DNA from: a bacterium | GTDB taxonomy: Bacteria; UBP13; UBA5359 | DNA: 64,000 nt | Assembly (NCBI GenBank): GCA_028685295.1 | Contig: JAQUEL010000002.1 | Coordinates: 7,559-71,558 of the forward strand | Reading direction: 5' to 3' | Shown here: in pieces, positions 6,200 to 51,573 of the stretch | Numbering within the stretch: position 1 is the stretch's first letter | Layout: each line of letters opens with the position of its first letter | Notes under the pieces: generated by a model | Database searches by the model: none | The model's input: the letters and a program-made list of their open reading frames with translations, nothing else | What the model was told of the DNA's origin: nothing | Position numbers and translations under genes: made by a program

Positions 6200-8671
6200 A
6201 TGAATAAAATCAATGAGGTTCCAGTAGAAAATCTGAGGCATTACGTAAACCCGGAGCAATTCGATTTTGAAACCACCAAGGATATAGCCCCGCTTACCGG
6301 CACCGTTGGCCAGGAGAGAGCTATCAGCGCTCTTAATTTCGGCTTTAACATCAAGACAGGAGGTTTTAATATCTATGCTGCCGGAGCCAAAGGAACGGGC
6401 AAAAATTCTACTATCAAGGCCTTTGTGCATGATAAGGCTCGACAGGAAGACCCTCATTGTGACTGGGTTTATGTTAACAATTTTAAGGAGACTGATAAAC
6501 CTAAGACCATCAGCGTTCCTACCGGCAAAGGTCCGGAACTGGCCGCAGATATGGACCAGTTGATAGCTGCCTGTAAAGAAGAGATCCCGCGTGCTTTTGA
6601 GAATGAAGATTATGATAAACGCAAGAGCGAGATCCTTAAGGATGTTCAAAAACGCCGCGACGAAATTCTTACGGAAATTCAGGCCATAGCTGAGAATAGC
6701 GGCTTCATAATAGAGATGACCAATATGGGGATTGTCACCGTTCCTGCCAAAAAAGGCAAACCTATGTCCAGAGATGAGTTTGAAGCTCTGGATAAAGATG
6801 AGAAGGACCGTTTGCAGGACAAGCTTATCAACCTTCAGACAGAGATCGGCCAGGCTCAGAATAAGGCCAGAAAGCTGGAACAAGAGGCAGAAGAGAAAAT
6901 ACGCAGCCTGGATAAAGAGGTGGCGCTCTTTGCTATTGGACATCTGCTGGATAGAATACGAGATGATTATAAAGAATGCTCCAAGGTAATAGATTATTTA
7001 GGCGAAGTGCAGAATGATATTATCGAACATCTGGATAATTTCAAACATGTCGCACGGCCGGAGGGAGCTACAGATGGCCAGCTTGCTTTGATGCAGGCGT
7101 TAGGACAGGGGGAGCCTACCTTCGATCAATATAAGGTCAACGTTTTTATAACCAACGGTCATGCTGAGGGTGCTCCTGTGGTTATTGAGAATAACCCGAC
7201 ATATTATAATCTGATAGGCCGGATAGATTACGATGCTAAGTTCGGCGTCATGACCACCAACTTCAATTTAGTCAAGCCTGGAGCTATTCACAGAGCCAAC
7301 GGTGGCTATCTGGTACTGCAGGCGCTGGATCTGCTGATGAACTTTCAATCATGGGACGCTTTAAAAAGAGTGTTGAGAAGCGGTGAGATTACCATAGAGA
7401 ATATCGGTGATCAATACCGTCCTATCCCCACTTCCACTCTAAAACCCGAACCTATTCCGGTCAATGTCAAGGTCATCCTCATCGGGAATCCGATGATCTA
7501 TCATCTGCTTTACGCCTATGACGAGGATTTTCCCAAACTTTTCAAGGTTAAGGCCGATTTCGGGCCGGATATGAATCGTAATGACGAGCATATACATGAA
7601 TATGCCTCGTTTATCACTGCCCGTGTCAATGAAGCCGGATTAAAGCATTTTCATAAGAGCGGTGTGGCCAGAATAGTGGAGTATGGCTCCCGTCTGATTG
7701 AGAACCAGAAGAAGCTCTCCACACGTTTTATCGAAATATCGGATATCATCAGCGAAGCCAGTTACTGGGCCGATAAGGATAACAGCGAGTATGTCATGGC
7801 CCGACATGTAGAAAAAGCGCTGTACGAGAAAAAATATCGCTCCAGCATGATAGAAGAACGCCTGCAGGAGATGATCAACGAAGGTACTCTGCTTATCGAT
7901 ACTGAGGGCGCTGTCGTGGGGCAGGTCAACGGTTTATCCGTGCTGGATATTGGAGATTATATGTTCGGCAAGCCTTCCCGCATCACCGCCAAGACATTTG
8001 TCGGACGGTCAGGAGTAACCAACATTGAGCGGGAAACAGCTATGGGCGGTCCGATACATAATAAAGGTGTCATGATCCTAACCGGATACCTGGGAAGCAA
8101 ATTCGCTGTTGATAAGCCCCTGGCTCTATCCGCCAGCATCACTTTCGAGCAGGAATATGGTGGAGTGGAAGGAGATAGCGCTTCCAGTACAGAGCTTTAT
8201 GCCATATTATCAAGCCTGGCGGAGGTGCCCATCAGACAAAATCTGGCGGTTACCGGATCCGTCAATCAAAAAGGAGAGATTCAGCCTATAGGAGGCGTCA
8301 ATCAGAAGATCGAAGGTTTTTTCGATGTCTGTCGCCTACGCGGCCTGACAGGAGATCAGGGCATTATGATCCCTCACCAGAATGTCAAGCATTTGATGTT
8401 GAGAAATGATATCATAGAAGCCGTTAAGAACGGAAGTTTTCATATCTTCCCCGTAAAATCCATAGATGAAGGCATCGAAATACTCACCGATATGGAAGCC
8501 GGGGCCAGAGATGAAAACGGGAAATATCCGGAGAACAGCATCTTTGGCAAAGCTGACAATAAGATCCAGCAATTTACCGATATCATGCGTATTTTTGGCG
8601 GCGGCGAAGATACGGAAGAGCGTAAGAAAGGTAAGATGGGCATGGCTGCAGAGGGAATAGACGAAGAATAA
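6200..8671 (+). CDS. Lon-like protease (LonC/AAA_32 plus S16 Lon_C domain)
   Basis: GQERA, GAKGTGK, coiled-coil insert, GAIHRANGGYL, catalytic GDSAS Ser and GGVNQKIEGF Lys. Start set at ATG 6200 after AGGAGG. Confidence 0.92.
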   Translation: MNKINEVPVENLRHYVNPEQFDFETTKDIAPLTGTVGQERAISALNFGFNIKTGGFNIYAAGAKGTGKNSTIKAFVHDKARQEDPHCDWVYVNNFKETDKPKTISVPTGKGPELAADMDQLIAACKEEIPRAFENEDYDKRKSEILKDVQKRRDEILTEIQAIAENSGFIIEMTNMGIVTVPAKKGKPMSRDEFEALDKDEKDRLQDKLINLQTEIGQAQNKARKLEQEAEEKIRSLDKEVALFAIGHLLDRIRDDYKECSKVIDYLGEVQNDIIEHLDNFKHVARPEGATDGQLALMQALGQGEPTFDQYKVNVFITNGHAEGAPVVIENNPTYYNLIGRIDYDAKFGVMTTNFNLVKPGAIHRANGGYLVLQALDLLMNFQSWDALKRVLRSGEITIENIGDQYRPIPTSTLKPEPIPVNVKVILIGNPMIYHLLYAYDEDFPKLFKVKADFGPDMNRNDEHIHEYASFITARVNEAGLKHFHKSGVARIVEYGSRLIENQKKLSTRFIEISDIISEASYWADKDNSEYVMARHVEKALYEKKYRSSMIEERLQEMINEGTLLIDTEGAVVGQVNGLSVLDIGDYMFGKPSRITAKTFVGRSGVTNIERETAMGGPIHNKGVMILTGYLGSKFAVDKPLALSASITFEQEYGGVEGDSASSTELYAILSSLAEVPIRQNLAVTGSVNQKGEIQPIGGVNQKIEGFFDVCRLRGLTGDQGIMIPHQNVKHLMLRNDIIEAVKNGSFHIFPVKSIDEGIEILTDMEAGARDENGKYPENSIFGKADNKIQQFTDIMRIFGGGEDTEERKKGKMGMAAEGIDEE

Positions 8672-33511: not shown

Positions 33512-36500
33512 TTATTCCAGCATCCACAATCCCGTGGAGGCTGCCGGCAGATCAACTTTGAATTCTTGCACTTTTTTGGCGATATAATCTTTTTTGAATG
33601 GGTCATAAATATCGCATTTTTTAGGCAGTTTAATAATTCTCTCTCCAGCATATCTTGTATGGATTGCCAGCAATCTTTCGCTGGCAAAAACCTGGTCATC
33701 ACCCTTATCGTATATATGGACACCTGCATATCCGGCTATATTTCTTAACAAAGAGGAGGGAATATTGGGCACCGCAGACCAGACTGAAGTCCAATCTTTA
33801 AATTCCTTGACACAAAGACCTGCTTGTCTGAAAGTCCATACGGTCGAGCTGGTACTGGCCCCCTCTCCCAGAACGATAGCCTGCTTATCAATACAGGAAA
33901 ACACCGGCGACAGAGACTGTCTGAGGCCGTACCTTAAATCAGTGGCCAACCCTTTAGTCATTCTGTGCGCATAGTCAATGAGGTAAACATCCAATCCTTT
34001 TTGCAGTTCGACGGCTTTGGCATCCAATATATTATTCTGCTTTGAGCTTGTATAGTCAGTGGCCCCTCCCGGTAAATCCAAGTGCTTCATTTCCATACCT
34101 ATAGTATCCGACATGGCCTTTACTGATAACCCGTTATCCGTTATATAACCGGGAGCATATATCCATAACAGGACATTGCCGTTTCTCTTTATTCTCTGAT
34201 CAATAATCTCTCTTACCTTATCAGACAGGTAAAAGGTATTGGCGAAGATATACAGTTTGTACCGATCGAAAGGAAAGTCCGGGGATGTAAGATCGGTATC
34301 AAGATAATCATCAAAGGGAGCCCCTAACCTGGATATGCCTTCCACGCTCTGGCGAAAGATAAAATCTTCGCATGCGAAGCTGAATTTCTGATAATTGAAC
34401 GATTTATTGTTGTAAATTACTGCTATCTGGGCGTTATTGCGATCATTCTCCAGCAACCGATCCGCTATAGCGGAAAAATTCTTTATCGCCTTGAATATCT
34501 CCGGATGATCGAAGGATTTACCCCCGGGACTGCCCATACTAAACCAGCAGATACTACTCCCTACACGGGTATGTATGCCGGCAAAGTTGCGTTTGAGAAC
34601 GCTGATTGTTTCTTCCGGAGTTTTTGCCCAGCCGAAATTATCCCCTATGGATTCAGCAATTACGTAACTTGGATGGCCCAGAGTGGATGCGCAGGTCCGG
34701 CTATCATCCTCCACTATTGCCATTTTGCCATGCAATATGGCGGAAGGTAAAAGATATTGGGGTTGAAAGACACCACCTGCATGCCTCTCACGATAATTAA
34801 ATGGAGTAAAGAAGAAATCTATATTTTTATCATATATCAAACGCTCAAAAGCGCCGCGCCTTCTGGAAGCTACCAAACCCGCATAAGGCTGATCATGCCA
34901 CCCAGGATAGTAATTTGCGCCCACCCAAGTACCAACAAGACTCTCATTATTCGAAGCTTCTTTCATTGCTTTTGCAAAATCAGAAATAACTTCCGCTGCC
35001 AATTCATAATACTGTTCGAAAAAATCAGCCACTTTCCTACTCTTTACCGGGTTATAGAATATGCCGTCATCAGCGGTGAATAGCTCTTCAAAGCCAGGCA
35101 TAGAAATATTTTTGAAATCCAGCGTATTATCGTTCCAAGCATCTCTAAGCAATCCGATATCATTGTTGTACTTATTCGTAATATATCTTGCAAATGCTTT
35201 TTGTGCTACCGGGCTATAATCCCAATAATCTCCCCATTCACCGCCTCCACCGCAAATGATATAACCGATAATTCTGTCGGCAAAGGGGCTTTCCCTCAGA
35301 TAGCCTACCTGCGCTTTCAGGCACTTGATAGTTTCCTCCCGCCAAATTTCGGATGCTATAGATCCCCGGTTGCCTTTGGCCATATTAGGCGGCCATACGG
35401 CTATATGATCAGGATGCTGCGCAAACCAATCTTTTGTTTTTTGGACACGGGCAGTTGTATCCAATTGAATAATGAACTTTGCATCGGGAAAAGTCTTGAT
35501 GATTTCTCTCAAAACCGGGGCATTGAATTTCCCGCCCCAGTATTCCTTCTCAAAAAACTCCGGCAATGACCCGTAATTCTTTTGCGCCGGATGAAATGCT
35601 CCCGATGAAACACCCCAAAAGAATACGTTAACCCCGCTTGCCGCCAGATTTTTTATATATTCTTCCTTGCCTTTGTAATTATGTTCTCTATATATACGAA
35701 TCGATGTAGGCTTATCATTTAAAAACAGCATCGGTACCCCGTGGCTGCTTTTCACCTGCGCCTTAAGGGGGACAACGGGCAACGACATCTTGGTCGAGTT
35801 GCTATCTTCAGCCCGCTGCGGCGAAATCGTTGGTGCGGCAGGAACTTTTGCAGACGAGTGCATAACCCTGCCGTCATTACCTTTGCCGGAGGTATCTTTA
35901 TATAATCCTTCCTTTGTCATACCTCCAAAATCAAGATCAAGAACTAATCCGTCTCTATTATTTATTGCCCTTTTGCCATTGCGGCGGTTATCAAAGTTCC
36001 ACGCCACCTCATTTGAATCAATCGCTCTATCATAAATCCTTAAGGCGGCCATATCTCCTTTTAAGAGCGAGCTTCCCGGGCCTTTTCCTATTACCAGCCG
36101 ATTCTTATTTTTTATTATCGCTGTATCGGTAAAGGTCTTCCTTCCTCTTGACACACCATTTATATAAATGGTTGCGGCACCTTTATCATATACAGCGACT
36201 ATATGGTTATACTGCTTTTCCACTATCCCCGCACTAGACCAAATGGCGTTTTTATTGTCGCAGTTGTTTATGCCGAACTTCACCCTTGTGGATCTATACA
36301 AGAATAATGCAAAGCCGTCTTCTTTACCCAACGCAGAAACTATGACGTTATAGTCATGCTCTCCCAGAGGCTTAAGCCATGCTTCCAGCGTAAATGCATC
36401 CGTAATACCCAGTCTATCCAGGGTGCTGCATTCTATATGGACCCTACCGTCAAAATGAAACTCTGTGCCCGCAGGTGTGCCGGCCGTTCCGGCGCATCTG

Positions 36501-36595
36501 CCTTTACTTGCAAATATCCCCGTAAACACTATATAAACCAGCGCTATAAGCAAAGCCATTAACCGTTTAGTCACAGCAGTCTCCTCCATCCGCAT
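33512..36595 (-). CDS. Secreted LamG-domain glycoside hydrolase (GH42/beta-galactosidase-like fold)
   Basis: Signal peptide; LamG (FTLEAW, HIVAVYD, LRIYDRA); TIM-barrel with GGGGEWGDY and EDDSRT; C-terminal trimerisation-like region. Confidence 0.68.
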   Translation of the reverse strand: MRMEETAVTKRLMALLIALVYIVFTGIFASKGRCAGTAGTPAGTEFHFDGRVHIECSTLDRLGITDAFTLEAWLKPLGEHDYNVIVSALGKEDGFALFLYRSTRVKFGINNCDNKNAIWSSAGIVEKQYNHIVAVYDKGAATIYINGVSRGRKTFTDTAIIKNKNRLVIGKGPGSSLLKGDMAALRIYDRAIDSNEVAWNFDNRRNGKRAINNRDGLVLDLDFGGMTKEGLYKDTSGKGNDGRVMHSSAKVPAAPTISPQRAEDSNSTKMSLPVVPLKAQVKSSHGVPMLFLNDKPTSIRIYREHNYKGKEEYIKNLAASGVNVFFWGVSSGAFHPAQKNYGSLPEFFEKEYWGGKFNAPVLREIIKTFPDAKFIIQLDTTARVQKTKDWFAQHPDHIAVWPPNMAKGNRGSIASEIWREETIKCLKAQVGYLRESPFADRIIGYIICGGGGEWGDYWDYSPVAQKAFARYITNKYNNDIGLLRDAWNDNTLDFKNISMPGFEELFTADDGIFYNPVKSRKVADFFEQYYELAAEVISDFAKAMKEASNNESLVGTWVGANYYPGWHDQPYAGLVASRRRGAFERLIYDKNIDFFFTPFNYRERHAGGVFQPQYLLPSAILHGKMAIVEDDSRTCASTLGHPSYVIAESIGDNFGWAKTPEETISVLKRNFAGIHTRVGSSICWFSMGSPGGKSFDHPEIFKAIKNFSAIADRLLENDRNNAQIAVIYNNKSFNYQKFSFACEDFIFRQSVEGISRLGAPFDDYLDTDLTSPDFPFDRYKLYIFANTFYLSDKVREIIDQRIKRNGNVLLWIYAPGYITDNGLSVKAMSDTIGMEMKHLDLPGGATDYTSSKQNNILDAKAVELQKGLDVYLIDYAHRMTKGLATDLRYGLRQSLSPVFSCIDKQAIVLGEGASTSSTVWTFRQAGLCVKEFKDWTSVWSAVPNIPSSLLRNIAGYAGVHIYDKGDDQVFASERLLAIHTRYAGERIIKLPKKCDIYDPFKKDYIAKKVQEFKVDLPAASTGLWMLE

Positions 36596-36597
36596 AA

Positions 36598-37296
36598 TTA
36601 TCTGTGTTTTGATTCATCGAAAATATTTGCTAAATTATCCCCTATCGAGGCGCGCTGCCATTTCACATGGCCATCGCAGTAGAGAATATTCAAGCCCTCG
36701 GAGTGCCTGTTACGCAAGCGCTGGCTTGAAACTTTTTCACCCAGCACGCCTATACCGGCATTACTGGTGGGATTGCCCCATTCGGATCCCTCCGAATCCG
36801 CTACCACGCCTACCTCGCTCGGCTTCATAATCCTGGTCATATCATTATACTGCGCCCACTCATTTGTGCCCCCGCTCCAATATGCCCACAGCACCCGAAA
36901 ATAGAGATAATCCGTGGGAACGATAAGTTGGCTTTCCAGGGAGGAGCAATCAAAAATAGTGTTCGCATAGCAAGGACTTGCATTTTTATCGTATTTTCCT
37001 TTGACTCCGACATATGGAGCCAAAAAATCCGCCCAGTATCTGCTCTGGCCGGCTGTGCCGAAGGAATTATAAGCCGGTGGAAACCACTCGTCGTAGTCCT
37101 GCGCATACATCAACAATCCCTGCCCAATTTGCTTCAGATTACTCTGGCAGGTCGTCTGCCTGGCCTTCTCTCTCGATCTACTGAAAACCGGAAAAAGTAT
37201 GGCGCTAAGGATTGCTATAATAGCTATAACTACTAATAACTCGATAAGTGTAAATCCTCTTCTTTCCCTGCGACAGCCCTCGTATCTGATAATCAT
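36598..37296 (-). CDS. DUF1559-type prepilin protein with H-X9-DG motif
   Basis: RRG|[41 protein letters not shown]. Confidence 0.92.
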
Positions 37297-40029: not shown

Positions 40030-41418
40030 TTACTTATGAAGTGCCAATCCCAGAACATCCATAGCTGCTTCGTCTACAGCCTCGGGCAACGTCGGATGAG
40101 CATGAATAGTAGCGATTATCTCTTCCACCGTTACTTCGGCCTTCATGGCTAAAGCCAGTTCACTGATAAGACTGGTAGCCTGGGGCCCGATTATATGAGC
40201 ACCTAGCACCTCGCCGTAGCGAGCATCAGCGATGATCTTGATAAAGCCCTCACGCTCTCCCATAGCCAGAGCTCTTCCTATATTGCGGAAGGGGAAGCGG
40301 CCTACTTTGATGTCACGGCCCTCCTGGCAAGCCTGCTCTTCCGTCAAGCCAACGCTGGCTATCTCCGGTGATGCAAAAACACAACTGGGCACTACCTTGT
40401 AATCCATGCTTTCATCGCCGCCCATAGCATTGGCGGCTGCTACCAGTCCCTGAGCTGAGGCCACGTGCGCCAACTGAATAATAGCGGCGGCATCACCTAT
40501 GGCATAGATGCCCGGAGCCGTAGTTCTCATATGATCATCTACCATAATGCCACGCTTTTCTACCGCCACGCCTGCTTCTTCCAATCCCAACCCCTCGAGA
40601 CAAGCACGCCTGCCTACCGCCAAAAGAACGAGATCGGCACTCTCAACCTTGTTGCCGGAAAGCTGCACCCGGCAGCCTTCACCTTCACGCTCTACTCTCT
40701 GTACACTAGCAGAGGTCATGACCCGTATTCCTTCACGCCCCAGAGCTTTCTCCATCTCCGTGCTTATTTCAATATCTTCCGTGGGCAAAATATGCGGCAA
40801 CACTTCCACCAGAGTTACCTCGGAGCCAAACTGCCTGAATATGTAGGAGAATTCCACCCCCACTGCCCCCGCGCCTATGACCAGTAGCCGACCCGGTATC
40901 TGTTGCAGCTCCAGCATTTCATCGCTGGTGACTACATTGCCCTGATCCAGGCCGCATCCCTCTATGGGAATGCCGCAAGGATAGGAACCGATAGCAAGTA
41001 TGACGTTACGTCCCTGTACTTCCTGTTCTCCTTGCTCGCTGGAAACTATAACAGATGTGCCTCTGCCCAGGCGACCGTTTCCATTGTATATATCTACATT
41101 CCCTGCTTTACAAAGATGCTCTATCCCTCCCCGCAATTGCTTGATGATCTGCTCTTTGCGCTTCATGATAGCGGATAGATCAGGAGTTACTCCCTCTACT
41201 TTGATGCCAAAACGATCGGCTTTTCGGGTAGTCGCCAGCAGCTCGGCGCTGGCGATAAGCGCTTTGGTAGGTATACACCCTCTGTTAAGACAGGTGCCTC
41301 CCAGCTTGCCTCTCTCCACCAGAGCCACACGCCCTCCCAATCTTGCAGCACGAAGTGCGGCTACATAGCCGCCGGGACCGCCGCCGATAACGATGATATC
41401 GTAAATACTATTACTCAT
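40030..41418 (-). CDS. lpdA: Dihydrolipoyl dehydrogenase (E3)
   Basis: GGGPGG, GGTCLNRGCIPTK disulfide motif, HPTLPE. Confidence 0.96.
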   Translation of the reverse strand: MSNSIYDIIVIGGGPGGYVAALRAARLGGRVALVERGKLGGTCLNRGCIPTKALIASAELLATTRKADRFGIKVEGVTPDLSAIMKRKEQIIKQLRGGIEHLCKAGNVDIYNGNGRLGRGTSVIVSSEQGEQEVQGRNVILAIGSYPCGIPIEGCGLDQGNVVTSDEMLELQQIPGRLLVIGAGAVGVEFSYIFRQFGSEVTLVEVLPHILPTEDIEISTEMEKALGREGIRVMTSASVQRVEREGEGCRVQLSGNKVESADLVLLAVGRRACLEGLGLEEAGVAVEKRGIMVDDHMRTTAPGIYAIGDAAAIIQLAHVASAQGLVAAANAMGGDESMDYKVVPSCVFASPEIASVGLTEEQACQEGRDIKVGRFPFRNIGRALAMGEREGFIKIIADARYGEVLGAHIIGPQATSLISELALAMKAEVTVEEIIATIHAHPTLPEAVDEAAMDVLGLALHK

Positions 41419-41535
41419 TACTATCCCCCTGAGATCATTTGTTACATAAAGTTCCCATCTTCGCTCTTGCGGGCTTCAATGCGGCAAACACTAAAGTGCT
41501 GATTTGAGAGGTGAGCTGGTGGACCTGACCAAATC

Positions 41536-42183
41536 TTACTTCTTTACCAGGGCCACAATAAATGCCAGCCCCAGGAACACATTCGTACGCCGCTGTGATT
41601 TCTGCAGGCGCTGCTCCATCTCTTTGGAAGCCTTTATATTATCATTGGCATCGGACAGATCTTTTTTAAGTGCGGATACCTCCGAATTGGCTGCTACTAA
41701 TTCGGTTTTAGTCTTGGCTAAATCTATCTTCAGGCCATCGAGCTCTTTTTGCAGGCCCCTCATACCTACCGTCATTCTGGCAAAATCCTCATTCAGGACG
41801 ACCCTTTGCTTCTCCAGATTGGCTATCTTCTCATCAAGAGCCTTCATTTTATCCTGTGCATCCACCATCTCGTTGCGGAATTCGTTAATCAGCTTACGTA
41901 CGCCATCCAGATCTTCCCGCAGTGCCTGAACCTTGCCGCCCTCTATCTCTTTAAGCAATTTATCCACAGCCAAAGCAAACTCCATACGAGTAACCGGCTT
42001 GCCTGATCCTAAAACACCGCCTTCATAGCTGGACAGGTAACCCTTGCTGATAAGGTTTTGCATCGTCTTATAAGCCCAATGATCGGGGCTTATTTCATCT
42101 GCTTCCGCTGCCATAGCCGCAGTCGGCATTATGAACAGCATCAGTAGTACCAGCAACAGATATTTTCTCACTCCAAACCACAT
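41536..42183 (-). CDS. SLH domain + coiled coil + C-terminal hydrophobic helix (Omp-alpha-like architecture)
   Basis: Signal peptide; HWAY...GY...TRMEFA SLH domain; about 110-aa heptad region; NVFLGLAFIVALV C-terminus. Confidence 0.8.
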   Translation of the reverse strand: MWFGVRKYLLLVLLMLFIMPTAAMAAEADEISPDHWAYKTMQNLISKGYLSSYEGGVLGSGKPVTRMEFALAVDKLLKEIEGGKVQALREDLDGVRKLINEFRNEMVDAQDKMKALDEKIANLEKQRVVLNEDFARMTVGMRGLQKELDGLKIDLAKTKTELVAANSEVSALKKDLSDANDNIKASKEMEQRLQKSQRRTNVFLGLAFIVALVKK

Positions 42184-42195
42184 CCTTAATATTTA

Positions 42196-44238
42196 TTATT
42201 CAACAGAGATCTCCGCCCGGCAGCCAGGAAGCTCTATCTCCTTGCCCTTGCCGTCCTTTATGCTCTTTTCCACCAGTTGAACCGTAGCTACGCCCGTCTG
42301 CAGCGTTCTAAAATGCAGCACGCAAAGGCTGCCGCTGCCGGAGAACGGCTGGCTGCCGCTGCCGGATATTGTTATTCTGCCAGCTTGCCGGTCTATCGCC
42401 GGTTCTATCCACTCGGACAGGGATTCACCATGAACAAAGAGAGTACCCCGCGAGATAAAGACGGGTTCCATAATTACGGGATCGTAGGTTATCACTGCCT
42501 GCCCGCAAGTAAACTCCCTCAGCCTGTCCAGCATTAATTCAATATCGATAAATCCACCGGCCTCAATGCGGCTCTTACCGGGCTGGAAATACGTTGTGGG
42601 CCTGAAACGGGGAACGGATATTCTACCGGATACTTTTTGAGCATCTACACTGGTGGAGTATACCGCCACCTGATAGATCAGATCTCCTTCCGCCCATTTC
42701 GATGGCGAGAGGTTCCATTTGAATTCTATTTCCTGTCCCGGTCCCAGATAGGGAATGCTCTCCAACGGCAGTGAGCCGGAAATCAGCTTCAGCTCATCCC
42801 CGGGTATCATGTAAACCCTAACGTTGCCGGCTTCAGAGCCGCCCGTATTACTGAGAAGCGCCCTGACTTGAAGAGGATCAGGCTGCCTGATGCCGTCGAT
42901 ATCCAATATCTGAGCCTCCGGGGCCATTGTTTTGAGGACCAGCCTGGGAGGAGAGAGAATGTTTATTCCCCGATTTACTTTGTTGCTCTCAATATTAGAA
43001 GAGAACACCTCAAGCGTCAGTATCTGCTTGCCTCCAGAGAGACCACTGGCCTGCACACTCCAGACCATCTGCCTGACCTCGCCGATATCCATATTGCCGA
43101 TATCGCGCTCTGCCCTGTCATCGGCAAAGGCCAGCCCCTCCGGCAGCTTGAGGACAGCCTTGACGTCACGAGCTTCAAAGCCGCCGCTGTTCTCCAAATA
43201 GCCGATAATAGTGATTATCCCTTGCTTGTCCTTGCCGCTCTGTACTTCGGCTGGAGCAGTGATACCCAGGGTCAGACGGCCAGGCTGTATATCCACTCCA
43301 CCCAGCCCGTAGTAAGTCGTTACCGTTCGAGATGCCCCCGCTCCAAGCTCGACCGGATCCCAAAATAGCGCTACGGCACTATCAAGCTCCTCTTCATCCT
43401 TGCGGATAAAGGGCGTACCCGGTTCAACACTGATACTCCACATCTCATCGGCAGCGGTGCCCCAATCCGTAAAACAGACCCTATCGGGAGTTACGGCATG
43501 CAAACCGCGCAGCGTTCCCTGCGCCACGACATGAGGATCGCTGAGGGAATCAAAAGCCAGCCAGTAATCCGGGATCTCGGCCCCATAGAGCCAGGCAGCA
43601 CCTGTCAATGCCTTCTCTCCGACACGGAACGGTGCGCCGTCATTATCGCCCAGCATGGTATCCAGTAGTACCCGTATGCCTATGCTGTGAGGCTTATCAT
43701 CAAGATTGGATATTCTGTAAGTGATTTCAGCCGTATCCTCCATACGTGTAGTCAAGCTGCGAGCAAAGCTCAGGATTTGTGTTACCTCGACAGGGCCGAA
43801 ACGACAAGTGGTAACCAGTGCTCTGTTCTGGGCTCTGGGCAGGCCGGATATGACGCCGGTCGGTCCGCCCCTGCCGGAACGACGTTTGGTCGGTCCGCCG
43901 AAAATATAGTCCTGACCGTCTATGCGTATGGTAGTATATGAAGTCCAGGGAACAGGGCGCCCATATATCAAAGGTTTATCGTCGTCGCTATCGCGCCCTA
44001 TATCGCCGCCAGTGGTATCGACGGATATACGTCCGGTATCATAATCACCGGCATTGACACGTAAAGAGATGAATTCATTGGAGATTACAGCTACCGATCC
44101 TTCGTTCACTTCTGCTCGAGCAGCACAAGCGCCTGCCGCTAATAGGATAAATAACGCCGCTATCCAGAAAATGCGCTCTTTAAGCGAGGTTGTCGGTTGT
44201 CGGTTGTTGATTGTTGATTTCGGGATTCCCATATTCAT
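42196..44238 (-). CDS. Secreted multi-Ig-like protein with a C-terminal cohesin domain
   Basis: Signal peptide; two CARDB/NEW3-like repeats (LENSGG..A..V; LSNTGG..A..V); C-terminal ITYDP...GSGSLCVLHF cohesin pattern. Confidence 0.7.
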   Translation of the reverse strand: MNMGIPKSTINNRQPTTSLKERIFWIAALFILLAAGACAARAEVNEGSVAVISNEFISLRVNAGDYDTGRISVDTTGGDIGRDSDDDKPLIYGRPVPWTSYTTIRIDGQDYIFGGPTKRRSGRGGPTGVISGLPRAQNRALVTTCRFGPVEVTQILSFARSLTTRMEDTAEITYRISNLDDKPHSIGIRVLLDTMLGDNDGAPFRVGEKALTGAAWLYGAEIPDYWLAFDSLSDPHVVAQGTLRGLHAVTPDRVCFTDWGTAADEMWSISVEPGTPFIRKDEEELDSAVALFWDPVELGAGASRTVTTYYGLGGVDIQPGRLTLGITAPAEVQSGKDKQGIITIIGYLENSGGFEARDVKAVLKLPEGLAFADDRAERDIGNMDIGEVRQMVWSVQASGLSGGKQILTLEVFSSNIESNKVNRGINILSPPRLVLKTMAPEAQILDIDGIRQPDPLQVRALLSNTGGSEAGNVRVYMIPGDELKLISGSLPLESIPYLGPGQEIEFKWNLSPSKWAEGDLIYQVAVYSTSVDAQKVSGRISVPRFRPTTYFQPGKSRIEAGGFIDIELMLDRLREFTCGQAVITYDPVIMEPVFISRGTLFVHGESLSEWIEPAIDRQAGRITISGSGSQPFSGSGSLCVLHFRTLQTGVATVQLVEKSIKDGKGKEIELPGCRAEISVE
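44188..44215. repeat. Four imperfect heptamer tandem repeats
   Basis: GGTTGTC GGTTGTC GGTTGTT GATTGTT inside the 5' end of the cohesin gene. Confidence 0.7.
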
Positions 44239-44294
44239 TCCTTGTTATTCGTTATTCGGCTCAGATACGGATTACCGGCTCGATCTCCTAGCTT

Positions 44295-44332
44295 CTGCAT
44301 CTGCGCACACGCCCGGGTGTTTGCAGATGCAG
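44295..44332. other. Strong intergenic hairpin between tonB and the cohesin gene
   Basis: Perfect 10-bp CTGCATCTGC/GCAGATGCAG with an extendable inner stem; no U tract on the coding strand. Confidence 0.6.
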
Positions 44333-44344
44333 CCCCTGTTTCTG

Positions 44345-45073
44345 CTAGTCGCTCTCGCCGAACTTCACCGTTATCGTAATCCAATCCGCCACAGGATGCC
44401 CGCTCTTTAAACGCGGCTTAAAGCGCCATCTCCTGCTTATTTCTCGCAAGGCTCTGCTATCCAGCTCACTATAACCGGAACCTTCCTGCAATTCGATTTG
44501 AGCAGGAGTGCCATCTTCAGCTACCAGCACATTGAAAACCACTTTTGCCTTGATCACGCCCCGGTTTTCAAGCCCCTTGGGAATAGAGGGCCATCTGCCC
44601 GGGCCAATAGCTATAGGCGCTCCGGTATCACCTTCACCAGGGCCTTCTCGATGCCCCTGCGTTGTACCGGATCCCGGAATGCCGGATGTCGTCCTGTTTC
44701 CCTGTCCCTGGCCTTTAGCATCCGCCTGTGCATCTCCAGAATGTCTACCCGGAGTTTTAGAAGCTCCTGAAGCCTCTACCTGGCTGGGAACAGGCCTGGG
44801 CTGAACAGATTGCACCTGTTCACTATCTACGTTTTGACCAGGTGTTCTTTCTGCTATGGCCGGCTCCAAAAAGGCAGGATCTTCAATATCCGCCGGCGAA
44901 TTCTCACCAGAAACAGGCAAGACCAGCTCCTCCGCCTCCTCTAGCAGGGTAACGGGCACGAAAACCTCCATCGGCTGCAGCATTGTAACTCCGCCCTTTA
45001 TCACCAGAAAAAGCAGCGCATGCAACAGCATGGATATAAAGGTTGCTAAAATTATGGGACGATTCTTTCTCAA
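44345..45073 (-). CDS. tonB: Energy transducer TonB
   Basis: TM anchor with SMLLH, low-complexity linker, TonB_C (SGY..LD..A....RWRFKP). Confidence 0.88.
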   Translation of the reverse strand: MRKNRPIILATFISMLLHALLFLVIKGGVTMLQPMEVFVPVTLLEEAEELVLPVSGENSPADIEDPAFLEPAIAERTPGQNVDSEQVQSVQPRPVPSQVEASGASKTPGRHSGDAQADAKGQGQGNRTTSGIPGSGTTQGHREGPGEGDTGAPIAIGPGRWPSIPKGLENRGVIKAKVVFNVLVAEDGTPAQIELQEGSGYSELDSRALREISRRWRFKPRLKSGHPVADWITITVKFGESD

Positions 45074-45501
45074 CCGGTCTTCTCCTTGATGACAGCCAGG
45101 GATAGATTGCCCAGGCCGGCACCTCTGACTTCATCAAGCACACGCACAACAACATCATATATTACATTCTTATCGGCTCTGACGATCACTGCCGTAGCAG
45201 GCCTGTCCATACCGGCTTCCACCAGCCGGTTACGCATCTGATCCCATGTAACCTCATTATCGTTAATCTCAATTCTTCCATCCCGGCTCAGACTGATAAC
45301 TATATTGGCGTTCTGCTGAATAGTTGTCCTGGCTTTAGGCAGATTCACTTTCATGCTGGCCGATGAAGAAGCAACCGTCATAGTAACAGCAAAGAAAATC
45401 AACAGATTGAAAACAGCATCGATCAACGGTGTCGTTTCCAAAAAGGGACGGCGCTTAGTGGAACGACGATAATTCCGCAACTCAAACTGCATCCGTCTCA
45501 C
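45070..45501 (-). CDS. exbD: Biopolymer transporter ExbD/TolR
   Basis: TPLIDAVFNLLIFF (conserved Asp), VNLPKA, VIVRAD. Confidence 0.92.
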   Translation of the reverse strand: MRRMQFELRNYRRSTKRRPFLETTPLIDAVFNLLIFFAVTMTVASSSASMKVNLPKARTTIQQNANIVISLSRDGRIEINDNEVTWDQMRNRLVEAGMDRPATAVIVRADKNVIYDVVVRVLDEVRGAGLGNLSLAVIKEKTG

Positions 45502-46102
45502 CCCGGCTCTTCATGTAATTCATCAATTCTGTGGCTCTTTTTTCCATCTCATTAAGAATGTCATCAATTTTGCCGGAGAGAGCATTGTAAACAATCATAA
45601 AGGGTATGGCTATAAGCAATCCGGTAAAGGTAGTGATTAGCGCTTCGGCAATTCCAGCCGATAGGGCTGTGTAATTGCCGATTTCTTCACCGGAAATGAC
45701 ATTGAATATCTTTATCAGGCCTGATATCGTCCCCAGCAGGCCCAGCATAGGAGAAATGGTTATTATAGTGGAGAGCAAGCCCATAAAACGCTCCAGGCGA
45801 GGAATCTCTATCAGCGCCGCTTCTTTCACCGCTTCCCGGAGCTCCTCGCGGTTGCGATCATGTGCCGCCAAGCTAACGGCAAGCACTCTGGCTACCGGCC
45901 CCGGTGTTTCTTCACAGAGGCTCAAAGCCTCCTCAACCCCTCCCCGTGCTACCTTGGCTTTAACCAGGTTCATCAATCTGGAGGTATTGATCCCGGCCCG
46001 CCCCAGATGATAGAAGCGCTCAAGACTTACCGCCAGGGCTATAACCGAACAGACCACCAATGGATACATCACCGGCCCGCCCTTGAGGAAATACTGCAAC
46101 AT
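45482..46102 (-). CDS. exbB: MotA/TolQ/ExbB proton channel
   Basis: KGGPVM, SPMLGLLGTI.G, GIAEALITT. Start set at ATG 46102. Confidence 0.92.
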   Translation of the reverse strand: MLQYFLKGGPVMYPLVVCSVIALAVSLERFYHLGRAGINTSRLMNLVKAKVARGGVEEALSLCEETPGPVARVLAVSLAAHDRNREELREAVKEAALIEIPRLERFMGLLSTIITISPMLGLLGTISGLIKIFNVISGEEIGNYTALSAGIAEALITTFTGLLIAIPFMIVYNALSGKIDDILNEMEKRATELMNYMKSRGETDAV

Positions 46103-46303
46103 AATCGTCCCCCATCCCTTCACCATGTTTGACATTACAATAGCCTGTCCTGTCCATATACGAACAAGGCAGGCAAAACGTTTCGGGGAGAGCTTGCTAC
46201 AAAGCGTTCCTCGGCAGTACCTTCCAGCCGGCACCTGCTTCAACGCCTCCCCCTCCTTGGGTATTCGTTACCAGCCGGATATTTCCCTTCCTATGCCGAA
46301 AAC

Positions 46304-47092
46304 TCAATACATCTGCTGCCCGCCTGTAACGTTGATAGCCTGTCCTGTAATATATGAGGCTTCATCCGAAACTAGAAAAACCACCACATTGGCCACGTCC
46401 TGCAGGTCACAGGAGCGCCCTAACGGTACCTTCTCCACATATTTGGCTCTTACTTGCTCTGGCGGAATACCCAGCTTTTTAGCGTATTCCTTGTCCAATC
46501 TATCCCAAAGAGGCGTTTCAAAGACATTTCCCGGGCAGACAGCGTTAACCGTTATTCCGAACGGCGCCAGATCAAGGGCTGCGCTCTGTGTCATACCAAT
46601 GATGCCGAATTTCGAGGTGCTGTAAGCCGCCAGCCAAAGCCCACCCTTCTTGCCCGATTTGGAACTCATATTGATGATGCGGCCACTCTTTTGCTCAATC
46701 ATAATCCTGGCTGCTTCACGAGTGCAAAGCATCGTGCCTCTGAGATTTACGGACATAGAGAGATCCCAGTCCTTGAGCTCCATATCGAATATTGGCTTGC
46801 TATGCAGAATACCGGCATTATTGACCAGGATATCCAGACGACCGAATTTATCTATAACAGCCTTGAAGGCATCTGCTACCTGCGCTTCATCAGAAATATC
46901 CACTCCCAGAGCCAGCGAACGCCTCCCTCCAGCCTCTATCTCCTCTGTCACAGCCTGCGCATTATGATAATTAAGATCAGCTACAGCTACATGACAACCC
47001 TCCTCAGCCAGGCGAAGGGCTAATCCTCTGCCTATGCCCTGTCCTGCCCCAGTCGCCAAAGCGATTTTATTTTCCAATCTGTTGCAACACAT
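46304..47092 (-). CDS. SDR oxidoreductase, sorbitol-6-phosphate dehydrogenase (SrlD)-like
   Basis: TGAGQGIG, NNAG, SKSGK, YSTSK; C-terminal YAKKLGI...KVPL.R.C..QDV...GQAINVTGGQ resembling SrlD. Confidence 0.8.
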   Translation of the reverse strand: MCCNRLENKIALATGAGQGIGRGLALRLAEEGCHVAVADLNYHNAQAVTEEIEAGGRRSLALGVDISDEAQVADAFKAVIDKFGRLDILVNNAGILHSKPIFDMELKDWDLSMSVNLRGTMLCTREAARIMIEQKSGRIINMSSKSGKKGGLWLAAYSTSKFGIIGMTQSAALDLAPFGITVNAVCPGNVFETPLWDRLDKEYAKKLGIPPEQVRAKYVEKVPLGRSCDLQDVANVVVFLVSDEASYITGQAINVTGGQQMY

Positions 47093-47205
47093 TTTACTTC
47101 TGCCTCCTTATTCCAGCCAAAATCTGAAGCCTGAAGTAGTTCACGCTCAGACAGTCTACTGGAGTGTTCTACTTCAGACTATCCGCTAAATTACCTGCCC
47201 GAACA

Positions 47206-48525
47206 TTAGACCAGCATCAACTCCGGTTGCTCCAGCAGAGATTTGATCCGTTGCAGGAAACGAGCAGCATCAGCCCCATCCATAACCCGATGATCGAAGA
47301 CCATGCTCAAATACATCATGGAGCGCGAAACGATCTGACCATCGACCACTGCCGGCTTCTCCTTGATAGCACCGACTCCCAGGATTCCGGTCTGGGGCGG
47401 ATTGATGATGGGCGTAAAGGCCTCCACACCAAAAGCACCGAGATTGGTTACAGTAAAGGTGCCGCCGTTCATCTCGGCTGCACCGAGCTTGCCCTGCCGG
47501 GCTTTCTCTACCAACCCCTTGATGGAAGCCGATATGGCTGCCAGACCCAGTGCATCAGCCTCTCTGATAACCGGAACAACCAGGCCCTGTTCCAGAGCTA
47601 CGGCCACCCCCAGATTGACATCTTTGTGCAGTGTTATTTCCTCCCCGTCAAAGGTGGAATTAATCAACGACATTTCCGATAGCGCCAGAGCTGTGGCCTT
47701 GGCGATAATATCGGTGAATGTCAGACGCACACCAGCGGCCTTTTCCACCACGGGCAATAGCCGTCCTCTCATAGCTACTGCAGCCGTCATATCCACTTCG
47801 CTGATCAGAGTAACCTGCACAGCGGTATGAGCACTCTGCGATAACCTGTCGGCAATGATCTTCCTCATACCGGCCAGCTTAATGACCTCTCCCACAGCGG
47901 ATGCCGATACTGCCGCCGGGATATCCCGGCTGTAAATCTTGCCTCCGGGCCCGCTTCCGATTATACCGGACAAGTCCGTGCCTTCGACAGCGGCCATCCT
48001 GGCAGCCAGGGGAGTAACCGAAGGTTTTTCCAACAGATAGGCTTTCACATCCCTCTCTACTATTCTTCCACCCGGACCACTGCCTCTGCCGGCTAATACT
48101 TCTACGGATACTCCGCGATCATTGGCCAGCCTTCTGGCCCGTGGCGATATCTTTATCCGCGCTTCTTCCGGCACCACCGTCTCCACGTCTTCCGGCAATG
48201 TTACAGGGGTTTGCTCTTTCAGCGTTTTCTTCGGCCCCGCCGTTTCCTGAGCCTTGCTGCCGGTGTTTAATTCCGGAAGCTTCTCTCCGGCTTCACCGAT
48301 AACGGCTATAGGTTCATAAACCGGCACGGTAGTTCCCTCTGAAGCTACTATCTTTAGTATGACGCCGGAAGCAACAGCCACAACTTCCATATTAGCTTTA
48401 TCTGTTTCTACTTCTACAATAGGATCGCCCCTCTTGACTGTATCACCCTCTTTGACCATCCATCTGGCTATAGTGCCTTCATCCATAGTCTCAGCCAGCA
48501 AGGGCATTATCATAATATGAGCCAT
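47206..48525 (-). CDS. acoC: Dihydrolipoamide acyltransferase (E2) of an acetoin/2-oxoacid dehydrogenase complex
   Basis: Lipoyl domain ETDKAN, two E3-binding repeats, catalytic DHRVMDG. The aco versus pdh assignment is by context. Confidence 0.88.
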   Translation of the reverse strand: MAHIMIMPLLAETMDEGTIARWMVKEGDTVKRGDPIVEVETDKANMEVVAVASGVILKIVASEGTTVPVYEPIAVIGEAGEKLPELNTGSKAQETAGPKKTLKEQTPVTLPEDVETVVPEEARIKISPRARRLANDRGVSVEVLAGRGSGPGGRIVERDVKAYLLEKPSVTPLAARMAAVEGTDLSGIIGSGPGGKIYSRDIPAAVSASAVGEVIKLAGMRKIIADRLSQSAHTAVQVTLISEVDMTAAVAMRGRLLPVVEKAAGVRLTFTDIIAKATALALSEMSLINSTFDGEEITLHKDVNLGVAVALEQGLVVPVIREADALGLAAISASIKGLVEKARQGKLGAAEMNGGTFTVTNLGAFGVEAFTPIINPPQTGILGVGAIKEKPAVVDGQIVSRSMMYLSMVFDHRVMDGADAARFLQRIKSLLEQPELMLV

Positions 48526-48540
48526 TATTCAGCGTCCTCC

Positions 48541-49512
48541 TCAGATTATTTCTTTTACAGCCCCGATTATATCGCTGATCTGAGGCACAGCGGCCTCTTC
48601 CAGAACAGGACTGCAGGGCATGGGACAGTTCTTGCCGGACAACCGCTTCACGGGAGCATCCAGGTAATCAAAGGCCTCTTCCATAATACGGGTGGCTATC
48701 TCAGCCCCAGGGCCGCCGCGTTCCACCGATTCATGAACTACAATAACCCGCCCGGTCTTTTTGACGGAGCTGCAAATGCTCTCCATGTCCAGCGGCACCA
48801 GGCTGCGAGGATCTATAACCTCCACCTCGATGCCCTCAACGGCCAATTCTTCGGCTGCCTTGAGAGCCCTCTGCACCATAGTGGAGATAGCAATTACGGT
48901 TACATCTCCACCCGAACGCTTGACATCAGCCTGCCCCAGCGGAATCAAATACTCTTCTTTCGGCACCTGGCCTTTCATCTTATACGACATCTTATGTTCA
49001 ATGAAAATAACCGGGTTATCATCTCTGATGCAAGTCTTAAGAAGACCCTTGGCATCATACGGATTTGAAGGCATGACTACGTAAAGCCCCGGCACATGCA
49101 TAAACCAGGCCTCCAGGCACTGAGAATGTTGAGCAGCAAAGGAACGTCCGCTACCGCAACTGGTGCGTATCACCAGCGGCACCCTGGCCTTGCCGCCGAA
49201 CATATAACGGACCTTGGCTGCCTGGTTGGCAATCTGATCCATGGCAATACCAGTAAAATCGATATACATTATTTCCGCTATGGGGCGCATGCCCGTCAGC
49301 GCAGCACCTACTCCGGCACCCACAATAGCTGCCTCTGAGATGGCTGTATCTCTGATGCGCTCCGGCCCGAACTCATTAAAAAGGCCTCTGCTGGCGCCGT
49401 AAGCACCACCGTAGAGCCCTACATCCTCGCCCATCAGGAAAACCCTCTCATCGCGAAGCATCTCTTCGCGCATAGCCTCAATCAAAGCCTGTTGAAAAGT
49501 TATCTCTCTCAT
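48541..49512 (-). CDS. acoB: TPP-dependent dehydrogenase E1 beta subunit
   Basis: GEDVG..GG, DTAISE, AQHSQ..EAW, EVIDPRSL. Confidence 0.9.
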   Translation of the reverse strand: MREITFQQALIEAMREEMLRDERVFLMGEDVGLYGGAYGASRGLFNEFGPERIRDTAISEAAIVGAGVGAALTGMRPIAEIMYIDFTGIAMDQIANQAAKVRYMFGGKARVPLVIRTSCGSGRSFAAQHSQCLEAWFMHVPGLYVVMPSNPYDAKGLLKTCIRDDNPVIFIEHKMSYKMKGQVPKEEYLIPLGQADVKRSGGDVTVIAISTMVQRALKAAEELAVEGIEVEVIDPRSLVPLDMESICSSVKKTGRVIVVHESVERGGPGAEIATRIMEEAFDYLDAPVKRLSGKNCPMPCSPVLEEAAVPQISDIIGAVKEII

Positions 49513-49611
49513 AATCTAAAGCTCCTTTAATTTAACTTTAGCTCAACTGCTCAAGCATTAGAGAATTCAGCAATCATAATTCCGACCTCTATTGCGAGAG
49601 AGCAATTATCT

Positions 49612-50577
49612 TTAGTCTACATAAACGTCCTCAAGAAGTTCTGAAACGTCGGGGTACGGGCTCTCTTCGGCAAAACGGGCGGATGCCTCGATATACTCAT
49701 AGGCTTCATTATTAATGCGCTCCGCCTCTTTTTCGGTTAGAACATCCTTTTCCACCAGCTTTTTGCGAAAGCTGAGAATAGCATCTCTTGCCTGCCATTC
49801 CGCCTCTTCCTCCCGTGTACGATAGGCCCTGGGATCACTCTTGGAATGACCTTTATAACGATAAGTTTTACACTCTATCAGCGTAGGCCCGCTTCCCTTT
49901 CTAGCTTTATCCACTGCCTTCCTTACCGCTTCATATACAGCCAGAACATCCATACCGTCCACCACCTGACCGGGCATACCGTAGGAAGTAGCCCTGATGG
50001 CGATATCTGGCTGGGCTGCACAGGCCCTGGCAGCAGGAACGGACATACCATAAAGGTTGTTTTCACAGATATAAACCACCGGCAGCTTCCAGACACCGCC
50101 CATGTTGAGCGATTCATGGAAAGATCCGGTGTTGCTGGCTCCGTCTCCAAAGAAGCAGAGAACAACCTGCTTGCTCTTTTTCATCTGAATAGACAGCCCT
50201 GCTCCGGTAGCTATAGGAATACCGCCGCCGACTATACCATTGGCTCCCAGGTTATTTGAACTGAGATCGGCAATATGCAACGATCCTCCTTTGCCCTTGC
50301 AATAACCGGTTTTCTTGCCCCACAGCTCAGCCATCATCAGCTTTGGATCTCCACCCTTGCCGACACAGTGTCCGTGCCCTCTGTGAGTGCTGGTAATATA
50401 ATCATCGGGCTTGATAGCGGCGCAGGCTCCAATGGCCACCGCTTCCTCTCCTGCATAAAGGTGGGTGCCGCCTTTGATCTTACCCAGACCATAGAGTTCG
50501 TCCACCTTCTCTTCAAAGTAGCGTACCAGCAGCATTCTGCGGTACATCTCCACCATATCCTTTTTACTCAATGCCAC
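49612..50577 (-). CDS. acoA: TPP-dependent dehydrogenase E1 alpha subunit
   Basis: HLYAGEEA, HRGHGH, GDGASN..NN TPP motif, YRYKGHS. Confidence 0.9.
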   Translation of the reverse strand: MALSKKDMVEMYRRMLLVRYFEEKVDELYGLGKIKGGTHLYAGEEAVAIGACAAIKPDDYITSTHRGHGHCVGKGGDPKLMMAELWGKKTGYCKGKGGSLHIADLSSNNLGANGIVGGGIPIATGAGLSIQMKKSKQVVLCFFGDGASNTGSFHESLNMGGVWKLPVVYICENNLYGMSVPAARACAAQPDIAIRATSYGMPGQVVDGMDVLAVYEAVRKAVDKARKGSGPTLIECKTYRYKGHSKSDPRAYRTREEEAEWQARDAILSFRKKLVEKDVLTEKEAERINNEAYEYIEASARFAEESPYPDVSELLEDVYVD

Positions 50578-50610
50578 TTGCTGTTCCCCCTCTAATTAGC
50601 TTTTTAGGCT

Positions 50611-51573
50611 CTAGGCTGACTTGGAGCTATGCTCCAACACTCTTTCGGCAGTCAGCTCATCTGTCACCAGAATATTGATGAATCCACCTCGCAAAGCACC
50701 GGTTATGGCCTCTATCTTATCAGCTCCTCCAGCCATCCCTATCACCGTGTCGATATTACGCAGCGCCTGCGGCGATATACCTACCACCCTATCATGCAGC
50801 GATGTGCGACAAACCCGCCCTTCGATATCAAAGAAGCAGGAGCAGACATCGCCTACTGCATCGAAACAAGCCAGTTCCTTTCCTTCTTCATCAGAAAGAT
50901 AACCGGTTTTCTTAAGAATGGAATCCGCCAGGCAGCCTATACCTACAAGAGCCGTATCTATGCGATGAAAGTTATCAAATATTTCTGCCAGCCGCTTCTC
51001 CGCCAGCAAAGCATCGCGCACCTGGCTGCTGGAGACCACCACCGGAGCCGGCAACGGATACCAGCGTCCTCCAAAGGCTTCGGCAATACGGCGAGCCAGT
51101 TCATTGGCATGATAATCTCCCTCCGCCTGGCCAACACCGCCCAGCATCTGAAAAACCGTTAGATCGGGGCATCTTCCATCCGGATGAAGGCAATTCACCA
51201 TCTCCTGCAGTGTCGTCCCCCAGGATACACCCAGGATATTGCCGGCGCAAACATTCCTTTCCAGATATGCTGCAGCGGCCTCTCCAATAGCTCTCTTGGA
51301 ATCACGGCCCCCGCCACAAAGAGCCACCACCGCTTCCTTCAGGTTGAACCTTCGGCAGAGCTCTTCCTCCAGCGCCGAAGTTTCGCCCAAAGGATTGATT
51401 ATCCTAATCTGGACTATGCCTCTATCCTCAGCAGCCTTGAGCAATCGTGATATCTTGGGACGAGAAAGCCCTAATGCAGCCGCAATCTGCTGCTGCGTCA
51501 ATTTCTCCTGATAATACATCTCAGATACCCTGACAAGCAGACGCAATCCATTCTTTACAGCGGACATCAACAT
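50611..51573 (-). CDS. SorC/DeoR family sugar-binding transcriptional regulator
   Basis: YYQEKLTQQQIA..LGLSRPKISRLL, GVSWGTT, AGGADK..AI..ALRGG.INILVTD. Confidence 0.93.
   Translation of the reverse strand: MLMSAVKNGLRLLVRVSEMYYQEKLTQQQIAAALGLSRPKISRLLKAAEDRGIVQIRIINPLGETSALEEELCRRFNLKEAVVALCGGGRDSKRAIGEAAAAYLERNVCAGNILGVSWGTTLQEMVNCLHPDGRCPDLTVFQMLGGVGQAEGDYHANELARRIAEAFGGRWYPLPAPVVVSSSQVRDALLAEKRLAEIFDNFHRIDTALVGIGCLADSILKKTGYLSDEEGKELACFDAVGDVCSCFFDIEGRVCRTSLHDRVVGISPQALRNIDTVIGMAGGADKIEAITGALRGGFINILVTDELTAERVLEHSSKSA

Follow-up and report, generated by a model that had tools for sequence, protein, structure and literature searches.

A conserved five-gene block combining a Ton/Tol-type motor with a secreted 680-residue protein and an OmpM-stalk-like anchor: a candidate envelope module of diderm Terrabacteria

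We analysed a stretch of 64,000 nucleotides (nt), hereafter the window, from contig JAQUEL010000002.1 of assembly GCA_028685295.1 (positions 7,559 to 71,558 of the forward strand), which belongs to a bacterium of the GTDB lineage UBP13, UBA5359, and identified within it a block of five co-oriented genes on the minus strand at positions 41536-46102. The first three genes encode a Ton/Tol-type motor: an ExbB/TolQ-family proton-channel subunit of 206 amino acids (aa) (45482..46102; PF01618, E 1e-31), an ExbD/TolR-family subunit of 143 aa (45070..45501; PF02472, E 3e-29) and a TonB-like transducer of 242 aa which consists of an SxxxH helix, a low-complexity linker and a TonB_C domain (44345..45073; PF03544, E 6e-13). 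These are followed by the gene for a 680-aa secreted protein (42196-44238), which has a signal peptide and sub-threshold matches to NPCBM_assoc and Cohesin, and by the gene for a 215-aa anchor protein (41536-42183), which combines a signal peptide, an S-layer homology (SLH) domain (PF00395, E 1.7e-5), a coiled coil and a C-terminal hydrophobic helix; all five genes and all their features described below lie on the minus strand. The exbB and exbD frames overlap by 20 nt and the TTG start of the tonB-like gene overlaps the exbD stop codon by 4 nt, just as an earlier note on this DNA, made from the sequence alone, had described for five co-oriented genes with overlapping exbB, exbD and tonB.

The ATG start codon of exbB at 46102 is preceded by a GGGGGA ribosome-binding site and gives a protein of 206 aa, compared with 204-212 aa in its orthologues. 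ExbB scored below both equivalog cut-offs, reaching 82 bits against the 221 required for TolQ (TIGR02796) and 69 bits against 206 for ExbB, while ExbD reached 67 bits with the TolR model TIGR02801, which has a cut-off of 127. The TolQ/TolR models score the two proteins marginally higher than the ExbB/ExbD models do, and the pair matches TolQ/TolR at the family level only. The membrane helix of ExbD (PLIDAVFNLLIFF) holds an Asp residue, and the TonB-like protein carries SMLLH at residues 14-18 within its N-terminal membrane helix; SxxxH occurs in every complete TonB-like copy among the listed related loci. In addition, the TonB-like protein matches TIGR01352 with 37 bits (cut-off 27), and the nearest solved chains to its C-terminal domain are those of TonB (6i97 and 6fip), not TolA. 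A D-box-like segment, FVPVTLLEE, to which we applied the definition given in PMC10907165, lies 25 residues past SxxxH in the TonB-like protein of the window, where ExbD would grip it; the strict D-box pattern was found in just 26 of 75 TonB copies. The motor proteins thus have what would be required to generate force from protons and to couple it to a TonB-family arm.

Relatives of the 680-aa protein were sought by a scan of one genome per prokaryotic species, and this identified 478 loci that encode the family. Neighbourhoods were compared for the best 80 of these 478 loci together with four loci from a protein look-up, and open reading frames (ORFs) were clustered on the 82 non-redundant loci. 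The order exbB-exbD-tonB-680-aa gene-anchor is kept wherever the contig is long enough. Same-strand genes for the 680-aa protein were found in all 82 non-redundant loci, for the TonB-like protein in 80, for ExbD in 74, for ExbB in 72 and for the anchor in 71, and no sixth gene is conserved throughout, the next commonest neighbours being lineage-specific. The earlier note had proposed an envelope tethering or remodelling system and had named neighbourhood conservation as the point on which that proposal could fall; since the block is kept (70-80 of 82 loci), the proposal survives this check. The note had also reported no TonB-dependent receptor, which stands for the area covered: none is encoded in the 64-kb window, where all ORFs of at least 550 aa are accounted for (one of them is ilvB), and none in the +/-6 kb flanks of 80 related loci.

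The 680-aa protein of the window is 35-42% identical over its full length to named proteins of Halanaerobiales, Limnochordia and Armatimonadota, and the carriers among the best 80 loci are Halanaerobiales, Limnochordia-type Bacillota, Armatimonadota/Hebobacteria and the window's own lineage. In a maximum-likelihood tree of this protein the Halanaerobiales form one clade (support 100), and the window groups with UBP13 UBA5359 (92-93% identity) and a second metagenome-assembled genome (MAG) in a trio that is sister to Armatimonadota/Hebobacteria (support 96). Because the clades of the tree are coherent, the pattern fits old vertical inheritance. The lineages that carry the block are ones described as diderm Terrabacteria, in agreement with the placement suggested before, but on this tree the host itself, closest among named genomes to the unplaced candidate lineage UBP13, is sister to Armatimonadota and not clearly a member of the Bacillota. 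Overall, the gene content and phylogeny fit a five-gene set that would be a dedicated envelope module of diderm Terrabacteria, inherited largely vertically. Two contigs labelled as Betaproteobacteria and Bacteroidota (L016 and L083) also carry the block and nest in Bacillota clades; mis-binning or mislabelling of MAG contigs is the probable cause, rather than transfer.

The 680-aa protein begins with a signal peptide region (residues 1-46; 44101..44238) with a hydrophobic helix at residues 19-38 in the model, followed by ARA|EV, and a signal peptide is present in all homologues. The full-length AlphaFold 2 (AF2) model, with a predicted local distance difference test (pLDDT) score of 88, shows this signal helix, a domain of about 275 residues, two immunoglobulin (Ig)-like domains and a C-terminal jelly roll. 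Foldseek matches of the full-length model were generic multi-Ig proteins, including integrins and PrgB, with TM-scores up to 0.26; they were dropped as uninformative, and the N-terminal domain was therefore modelled on its own. This domain (residues 47-320; 43279..44100) was modelled as a galactose-mutarotase-like beta-supersandwich with a pLDDT of 90 and a predicted TM-score (pTM) of 0.90, and Foldseek matched it to the N-domains of glycoside hydrolase family 94 (GH94) phosphorylases and cyclic glucan synthases, to GH116 glucosidases and to the P1 domain of YidC (TMq 0.5-0.6). Its profile found no sequence match in PDB or Pfam, and the domain is a well-defined family without a Pfam or NCBIfam model. 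The invariant positions of the domain are enriched in Asp, Asn, Trp and Arg, from which we infer a putative sugar-binding site; the modelled fold is of a glycan-binding type, and this would be its candidate site.

Two Ig-like domains of the CARDB/NPCBM_assoc type (residues 321-545; 42604..43278) follow in the AF2 model, with a match to PF10633 (E 1.5e-4) just under the Pfam cut-off, and the chain ends in a cohesin-like beta-jelly-roll (residues 546-680; 42199..42603) whose match to PF00963 is likewise sub-threshold (E 2.9e-4, 21.5 bits against a cut-off of 24.1). Precomputed annotations record PF10633 and PF07705 in many homologues and PF00963 in about a third of them, and a fold match links the full-length model to 3l8q, a type II cohesin dyad (E 1e-8), so that a cohesin identity of the C-terminal domain is weakly supported. 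Median identity to distant homologues is 50% for the N-terminal domain and 24% for the cohesin-like domain; the predicted supersandwich, not the cohesin-like domain, is the most conserved module of the protein. The partner had originally been characterised as a cohesin-bearing multi-Ig protein, and of this description the two Ig domains hold, whereas the cohesin remains sub-threshold and the conserved core lies in the N-terminal supersandwich. A search for shorter proteins with the N-terminal domain returned mostly gene fragments and a few true paralogues in unrelated contexts. Two paralogue genes lie at L085 6001-7410 and L086 6001-7272, one adjoining a gene for a GGDEF protein and the other placed among Ser/Thr kinase, FHA, PP2C and VWA genes.

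The anchor protein carries a single SLH domain (residues 33-70; 41974..42087) that is above the Pfam cut-off and has HWAY and TRME motifs; a passage of PMC10628300 describes a sugar-binding Trp and a TRAE/TRYE motif in SLH domains. A coiled-coil rod of about 120 residues (about residues 75-195; 41599..41961), which matches many coiled-coil families, leads to a C-terminal hydrophobic anchor helix, NVFLGLAFIVALV, followed by KK (41545..41595). This helix was seen in 70 of 70 complete orthologues, which also share the signal peptide and the rod, and in which the tail past the helix has a median length of 1 residue. Basic residues flank the helix on both sides, and charge bias near it was considered as a membrane indicator and rejected, as it does not separate inner- from outer-membrane anchoring. 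Rods of orthologues can be as short as about 60 residues or exceed 1000, and the whole proteins span 127 to 1447 aa. In most lineages, that of the window among them, an SLH wall-binding domain of the OmpM type tips the rod. Covariation between the length of the TonB linker and that of the rod was weak (Spearman 0.27, p 0.03, uncorrected for phylogeny) and was not relied on.

Residues 19-124 of the anchor match the stalk of Veillonella parvula OmpM (8bys, E 1.5e-6; 8bz2, E 4.4e-5; also 8bym) and SlpA of Deinococcus radiodurans (7zgx, E 4.7e-6), and the N-terminus of the NCBIfam model por_somb matches the N-terminus of the anchor (E 4e-10). As predicted from these matches, the anchor is an OmpM-type stalk without a barrel. 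This bears out the earlier description of an OmpM-like stalk lacking the beta-barrel, as the chain ends at 215 aa, and the sequence features also agree with the SLH, coiled-coil and C-terminal helix layout of Omp-alpha that had been recognised at the outset. The Omp-alpha layout is described in 10.1101/2021.05.31.446380, and the likeness to it is one of architecture only, whereas OmpM and SlpA resemble the SLH domain and rod of the anchor in sequence. Unlike OmpM and SlpA, the anchor has no fused C-terminal beta-barrel; unlike Omp-alpha, it has no adjoining Omp-beta barrel gene, its neighbours being the 680-aa gene and lpdA, and no barrel gene is conserved in related loci. It differs from all three in that it is always encoded with a Ton-type motor.

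In the window, the block sits inside an acetoin/2-oxoacid dehydrogenase-type operon (40030-51573), between the short-chain dehydrogenase/reductase (SDR) and E3 genes, and the order is SorC-type regulator, E1 alpha, E1 beta, E2, SDR, the block, E3 (lpdA) and a PocR-AraC regulator. The two closest relatives (L005 and L006) share this arrangement, which no other lineage shows. The block of 27-29 Limnochordia-type loci is inserted between dacF-spoIIAA-spoIIAB-sigF (with PHP and GNAT genes) and spoVAC-spoVAD-spoVAEB, an example of this insertion being L003 1585-13340. The PHP-domain gene is also found 5' of exbB in Halanaerobiales, and 26 loci overall carry one. In all ten Halanaerobiales-clade loci (for example L002 10729-11316) the gene immediately after the anchor gene, and on its strand, encodes a SleB/CwlJ-type wall hydrolase (Hydrolase_2). 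Thus, flanking genes change between lineages while the five genes stay.

The 106-nt spacer between the tonB-like and 680-aa genes is predicted to fold into a stable hairpin at 44295..44332; the 136-nt region has a minimum free energy of -45.8 kcal/mol, with a z-score of -3.7 relative to shuffled sequences. As the hairpin lacks a U tract behind it, it is no canonical terminator; it may act in processing or stability and thereby set the stoichiometry of motor to partners. A promoter and terminator scan of the locus found no pattern above chance marking the block boundaries. Only the stop codon and four further codons (42184-42198) separate the 680-aa gene from the SLH-rod gene, and both are in one frame, so that a conceptual translation continued past the stop would join the two proteins in a chain suited to folding the pair as one. 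Four sequencing runs considered as expression evidence were set aside, since they are of unrecorded kind, contain records up to 215 kb and low-depth fragments, and look like DNA metagenomes.

Elsewhere in the window, a gene for a DUF1559/prepilin-type N-methylation protein (232 aa) lies directly upstream of one for a 1027-aa LamG-domain protein (33512-37296). DUF1559 proteins are typical of PVC-type (Planctomycetes, Verrucomicrobia and Chlamydiae) and Armatimonadota-like genomes, and the presence of this one fits a non-Bacillota placement of the host organism. Another gene of the window (6098-8671) codes for a LonC/LonB-like protease of 857 aa, which comprises AAA_32, LonB lid, LonC helical and Lon_C domains.

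The block resembles Tol-Pal in the logic of its order, since tolQ-tolR-tolA-tolB-pal likewise encodes a channel pair, an SxxxH transducer, a beta-rich periplasmic protein and a wall-binding anchor, and also in its distribution, as it is found in outer-membrane-bearing lineages reported to be without Tol-Pal. However, the 680-aa protein has no TolB (TolB_N, beta-propeller) or PD40 matches, and the anchor has neither an OmpA-like domain nor a lipobox and so is not a Pal; there is no CpoB in the block either. Its transducer ends in TonB_C rather than in TolA domain III, and no evident free N-terminal tail resembling a TolA box is encoded. Since neither the fourth protein is homologous to TolB nor the fifth to Pal, the likeness to Tol-Pal is an analogy and not a membership. 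The motor families, the SxxxH helix, the Asp of ExbD, the D-box-like strand and TonB_C are all features shared with Ton systems, but the ExbB and ExbD of the block lie far under the equivalog cut-offs, and in place of a linked plug-and-barrel receptor, which is absent from the window and from the flanks of the 80 loci, there are two conserved non-barrel partners.

Halanaerobiales, Limnochordia and Armatimonadetes have been treated as outer-membrane-bearing and OmpM-tethered (10.1101/2021.05.31.446380). Tol-Pal has been reported in Gracilicutes only, and among Firmicutes, systems of tonB with a receptor were detected in Negativicutes only (PMC12204202). In the cyanobacterium Anabaena, mutation of TonB2 affects outer-membrane integrity rather than siderophore uptake, so that TonB2 and SjdR offer a Terrabacterial precedent for TonB-family roles in outer-membrane integrity or peptidoglycan structuring (PMC8597729). 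Each of those, however, is a lone gene with neither a 680-aa nor a rod partner, and the likeness is by role only.

Given that surveys report no Tol-Pal in the carrier lineages, which are treated as OmpM-tethered, and given the conserved set of motor and partners, we favour a role in the control of tethering; the lack of a receptor gene in the window and in the flanks of the 80 loci, and the wall-hydrolase gene behind the block in Halanaerobiales, also count in its favour. Gene order, domain content and phyletic pattern suggest energised control of wall-to-membrane tethering as the most likely role of the block, a tentative reading to which we give somewhat less than an even chance. The two exported partners are the sole conserved candidate targets for the force. 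In the proposed mechanism, ExbB and ExbD would use the proton-motive force to pull via the C-terminal domain of the TonB-like protein, the pulled target would be the 680-aa protein or its complex with the rod, and the pull would load, release or reposition the tether between wall and membrane. The task would be energised envelope maintenance like that of TolQRA on TolB-Pal, rather than the opening of a plugged receptor barrel. More specifically, the module might be a Terrabacterial functional counterpart of Tol-Pal, assembled from components that have no relationship to TolB or Pal. It would be an ancient machine, powered by protons, whose TonB-family arm acts on a periplasmic glycan-binding adaptor and an OmpM-stalk-like coiled-coil anchor to set or relocate the attachment of the outer membrane to the wall, for example at the division site. 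This fuller version is possible, but we consider it doubtful.

Several observations weigh against tethering control. In one Armatimonadota genome exbBD is not adjacent to the block, and the anchor gene of Armatimonadota/Hebobacteria encodes no SLH domain, so that not every version of the module would bind the wall through SLH. In the mature 680-aa protein only about five residues are free before the first modelled strand, which leaves no obvious disordered TonB/TolA box of the kind found in TolB or in receptors. Shorter paralogues of 423-469 aa (34-36% identity) have the N-terminal domain as well, in surroundings that lack Ton genes. Finally, receptors may be encoded elsewhere in the carrier genomes, and TonB has been reported in Armatimonadetes.

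These last points bear on a different explanation, in which energy is spent on taking up or processing a substrate such as a glycan. The 680-aa protein would then be a binding protein of the periplasm or the surface that supplies an outer-membrane channel, either an OmpM porin or a TonB-dependent receptor, with its gene at another place in the genome, and TonB would be a normal Ton transducer. The report of TonB in Armatimonadetes would be in keeping with this, as would the fold of the N-terminal domain, which is that of carbohydrate-binding modules in GH94 and GH116 enzymes, the TonB-like rather than TolA-like C-terminal domain of the transducer, and the name "iron uptake porin" given to the nearest NCBIfam model for the N-terminus of the SLH protein. 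Nevertheless, a barrel or receptor gene is linked in none of the 80 loci, and the system looks housekeeping-like, in that the 680-aa gene is never duplicated and no uptake or catabolic neighbour is conserved across the 82 loci. Nor are the contexts tied to any single nutrient, with the block in an aco operon here and in the sigF/spoVA region of Limnochordia-type genomes, and we regard uptake as unlikely. The sigF/spoVA context could instead point to a remodelling device linked to sporulation or germination in diderm spore-formers, for example one that helps to convert or attach the outer spore membrane. The 27-29 Limnochordia-type loci hold the block straight after spoIIAA-spoIIAB-sigF and before the spoVA genes, and the SleB/CwlJ-type hydrolase gene stands 3' of the block in 10 of 10 Halanaerobiales loci. 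This synteny is lineage-specific, however: the lineage of the window has the block within an acetoin dehydrogenase operon, sporulation genes are lacking next to it in the Armatimonadota locus shown, and Armatimonadota are not known to sporulate. A sporulation device is accordingly a very improbable explanation in our view.

The proteins themselves might form a static scaffold for surface or periplasmic display, in which the cohesin-like domain docks dockerin partners, the SLH rod anchors the assembly to the wall and the motor is only an assembly aid or unrelated. The Pfam Cohesin match in about a third of the homologues, the fold match to 3l8q and database names such as "cellulosome anchor protein" all lean towards this idea. 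The cohesin-like domain is nevertheless the least conserved part of the protein (24% identity) and is sub-threshold in the window, and a scaffold would leave the strict linkage to exbB-exbD-tonB across phyla without explanation; we also know of no cellulosome production by carriers such as Halanaerobium. We consider the scaffold improbable, though a shade less so than the sporulation device. Chance adjacency or local operon shuffling, with no joint function, might be argued from the lack of any promoter or terminator pattern above chance to delimit the block and from its position here inside an unrelated metabolic operon. Yet 70-80 of 82 loci, drawn from three or more phylum-level lineages and with protein identities of 35-42%, keep the order, which effectively refutes chance adjacency, and the reading frames overlap or are closely spaced; it hardly merits further consideration.

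In conclusion, our comparison suggests that a Ton/Tol-type motor with a conserved, previously undescribed set of partners may be what is new here, and full-text literature searches found no published description of this gene cluster. OmpM-type proteins serve as outer-membrane tethers in diderm Terrabacteria, for which surveys report no Tol-Pal. A conserved operon of motor plus tether provides named genes for the question of how energy from the inner membrane reaches the outer envelope in these bacteria, or how the outer membrane is constricted at division. If the control of tethering proves to be its role, the Ton/Tol motor family would gain a third kind of target beside plugged barrels and TolB-Pal, and the module would offer an extra character for reconstructing the ancestral bacterial envelope and the transition from diderm to monoderm cells.

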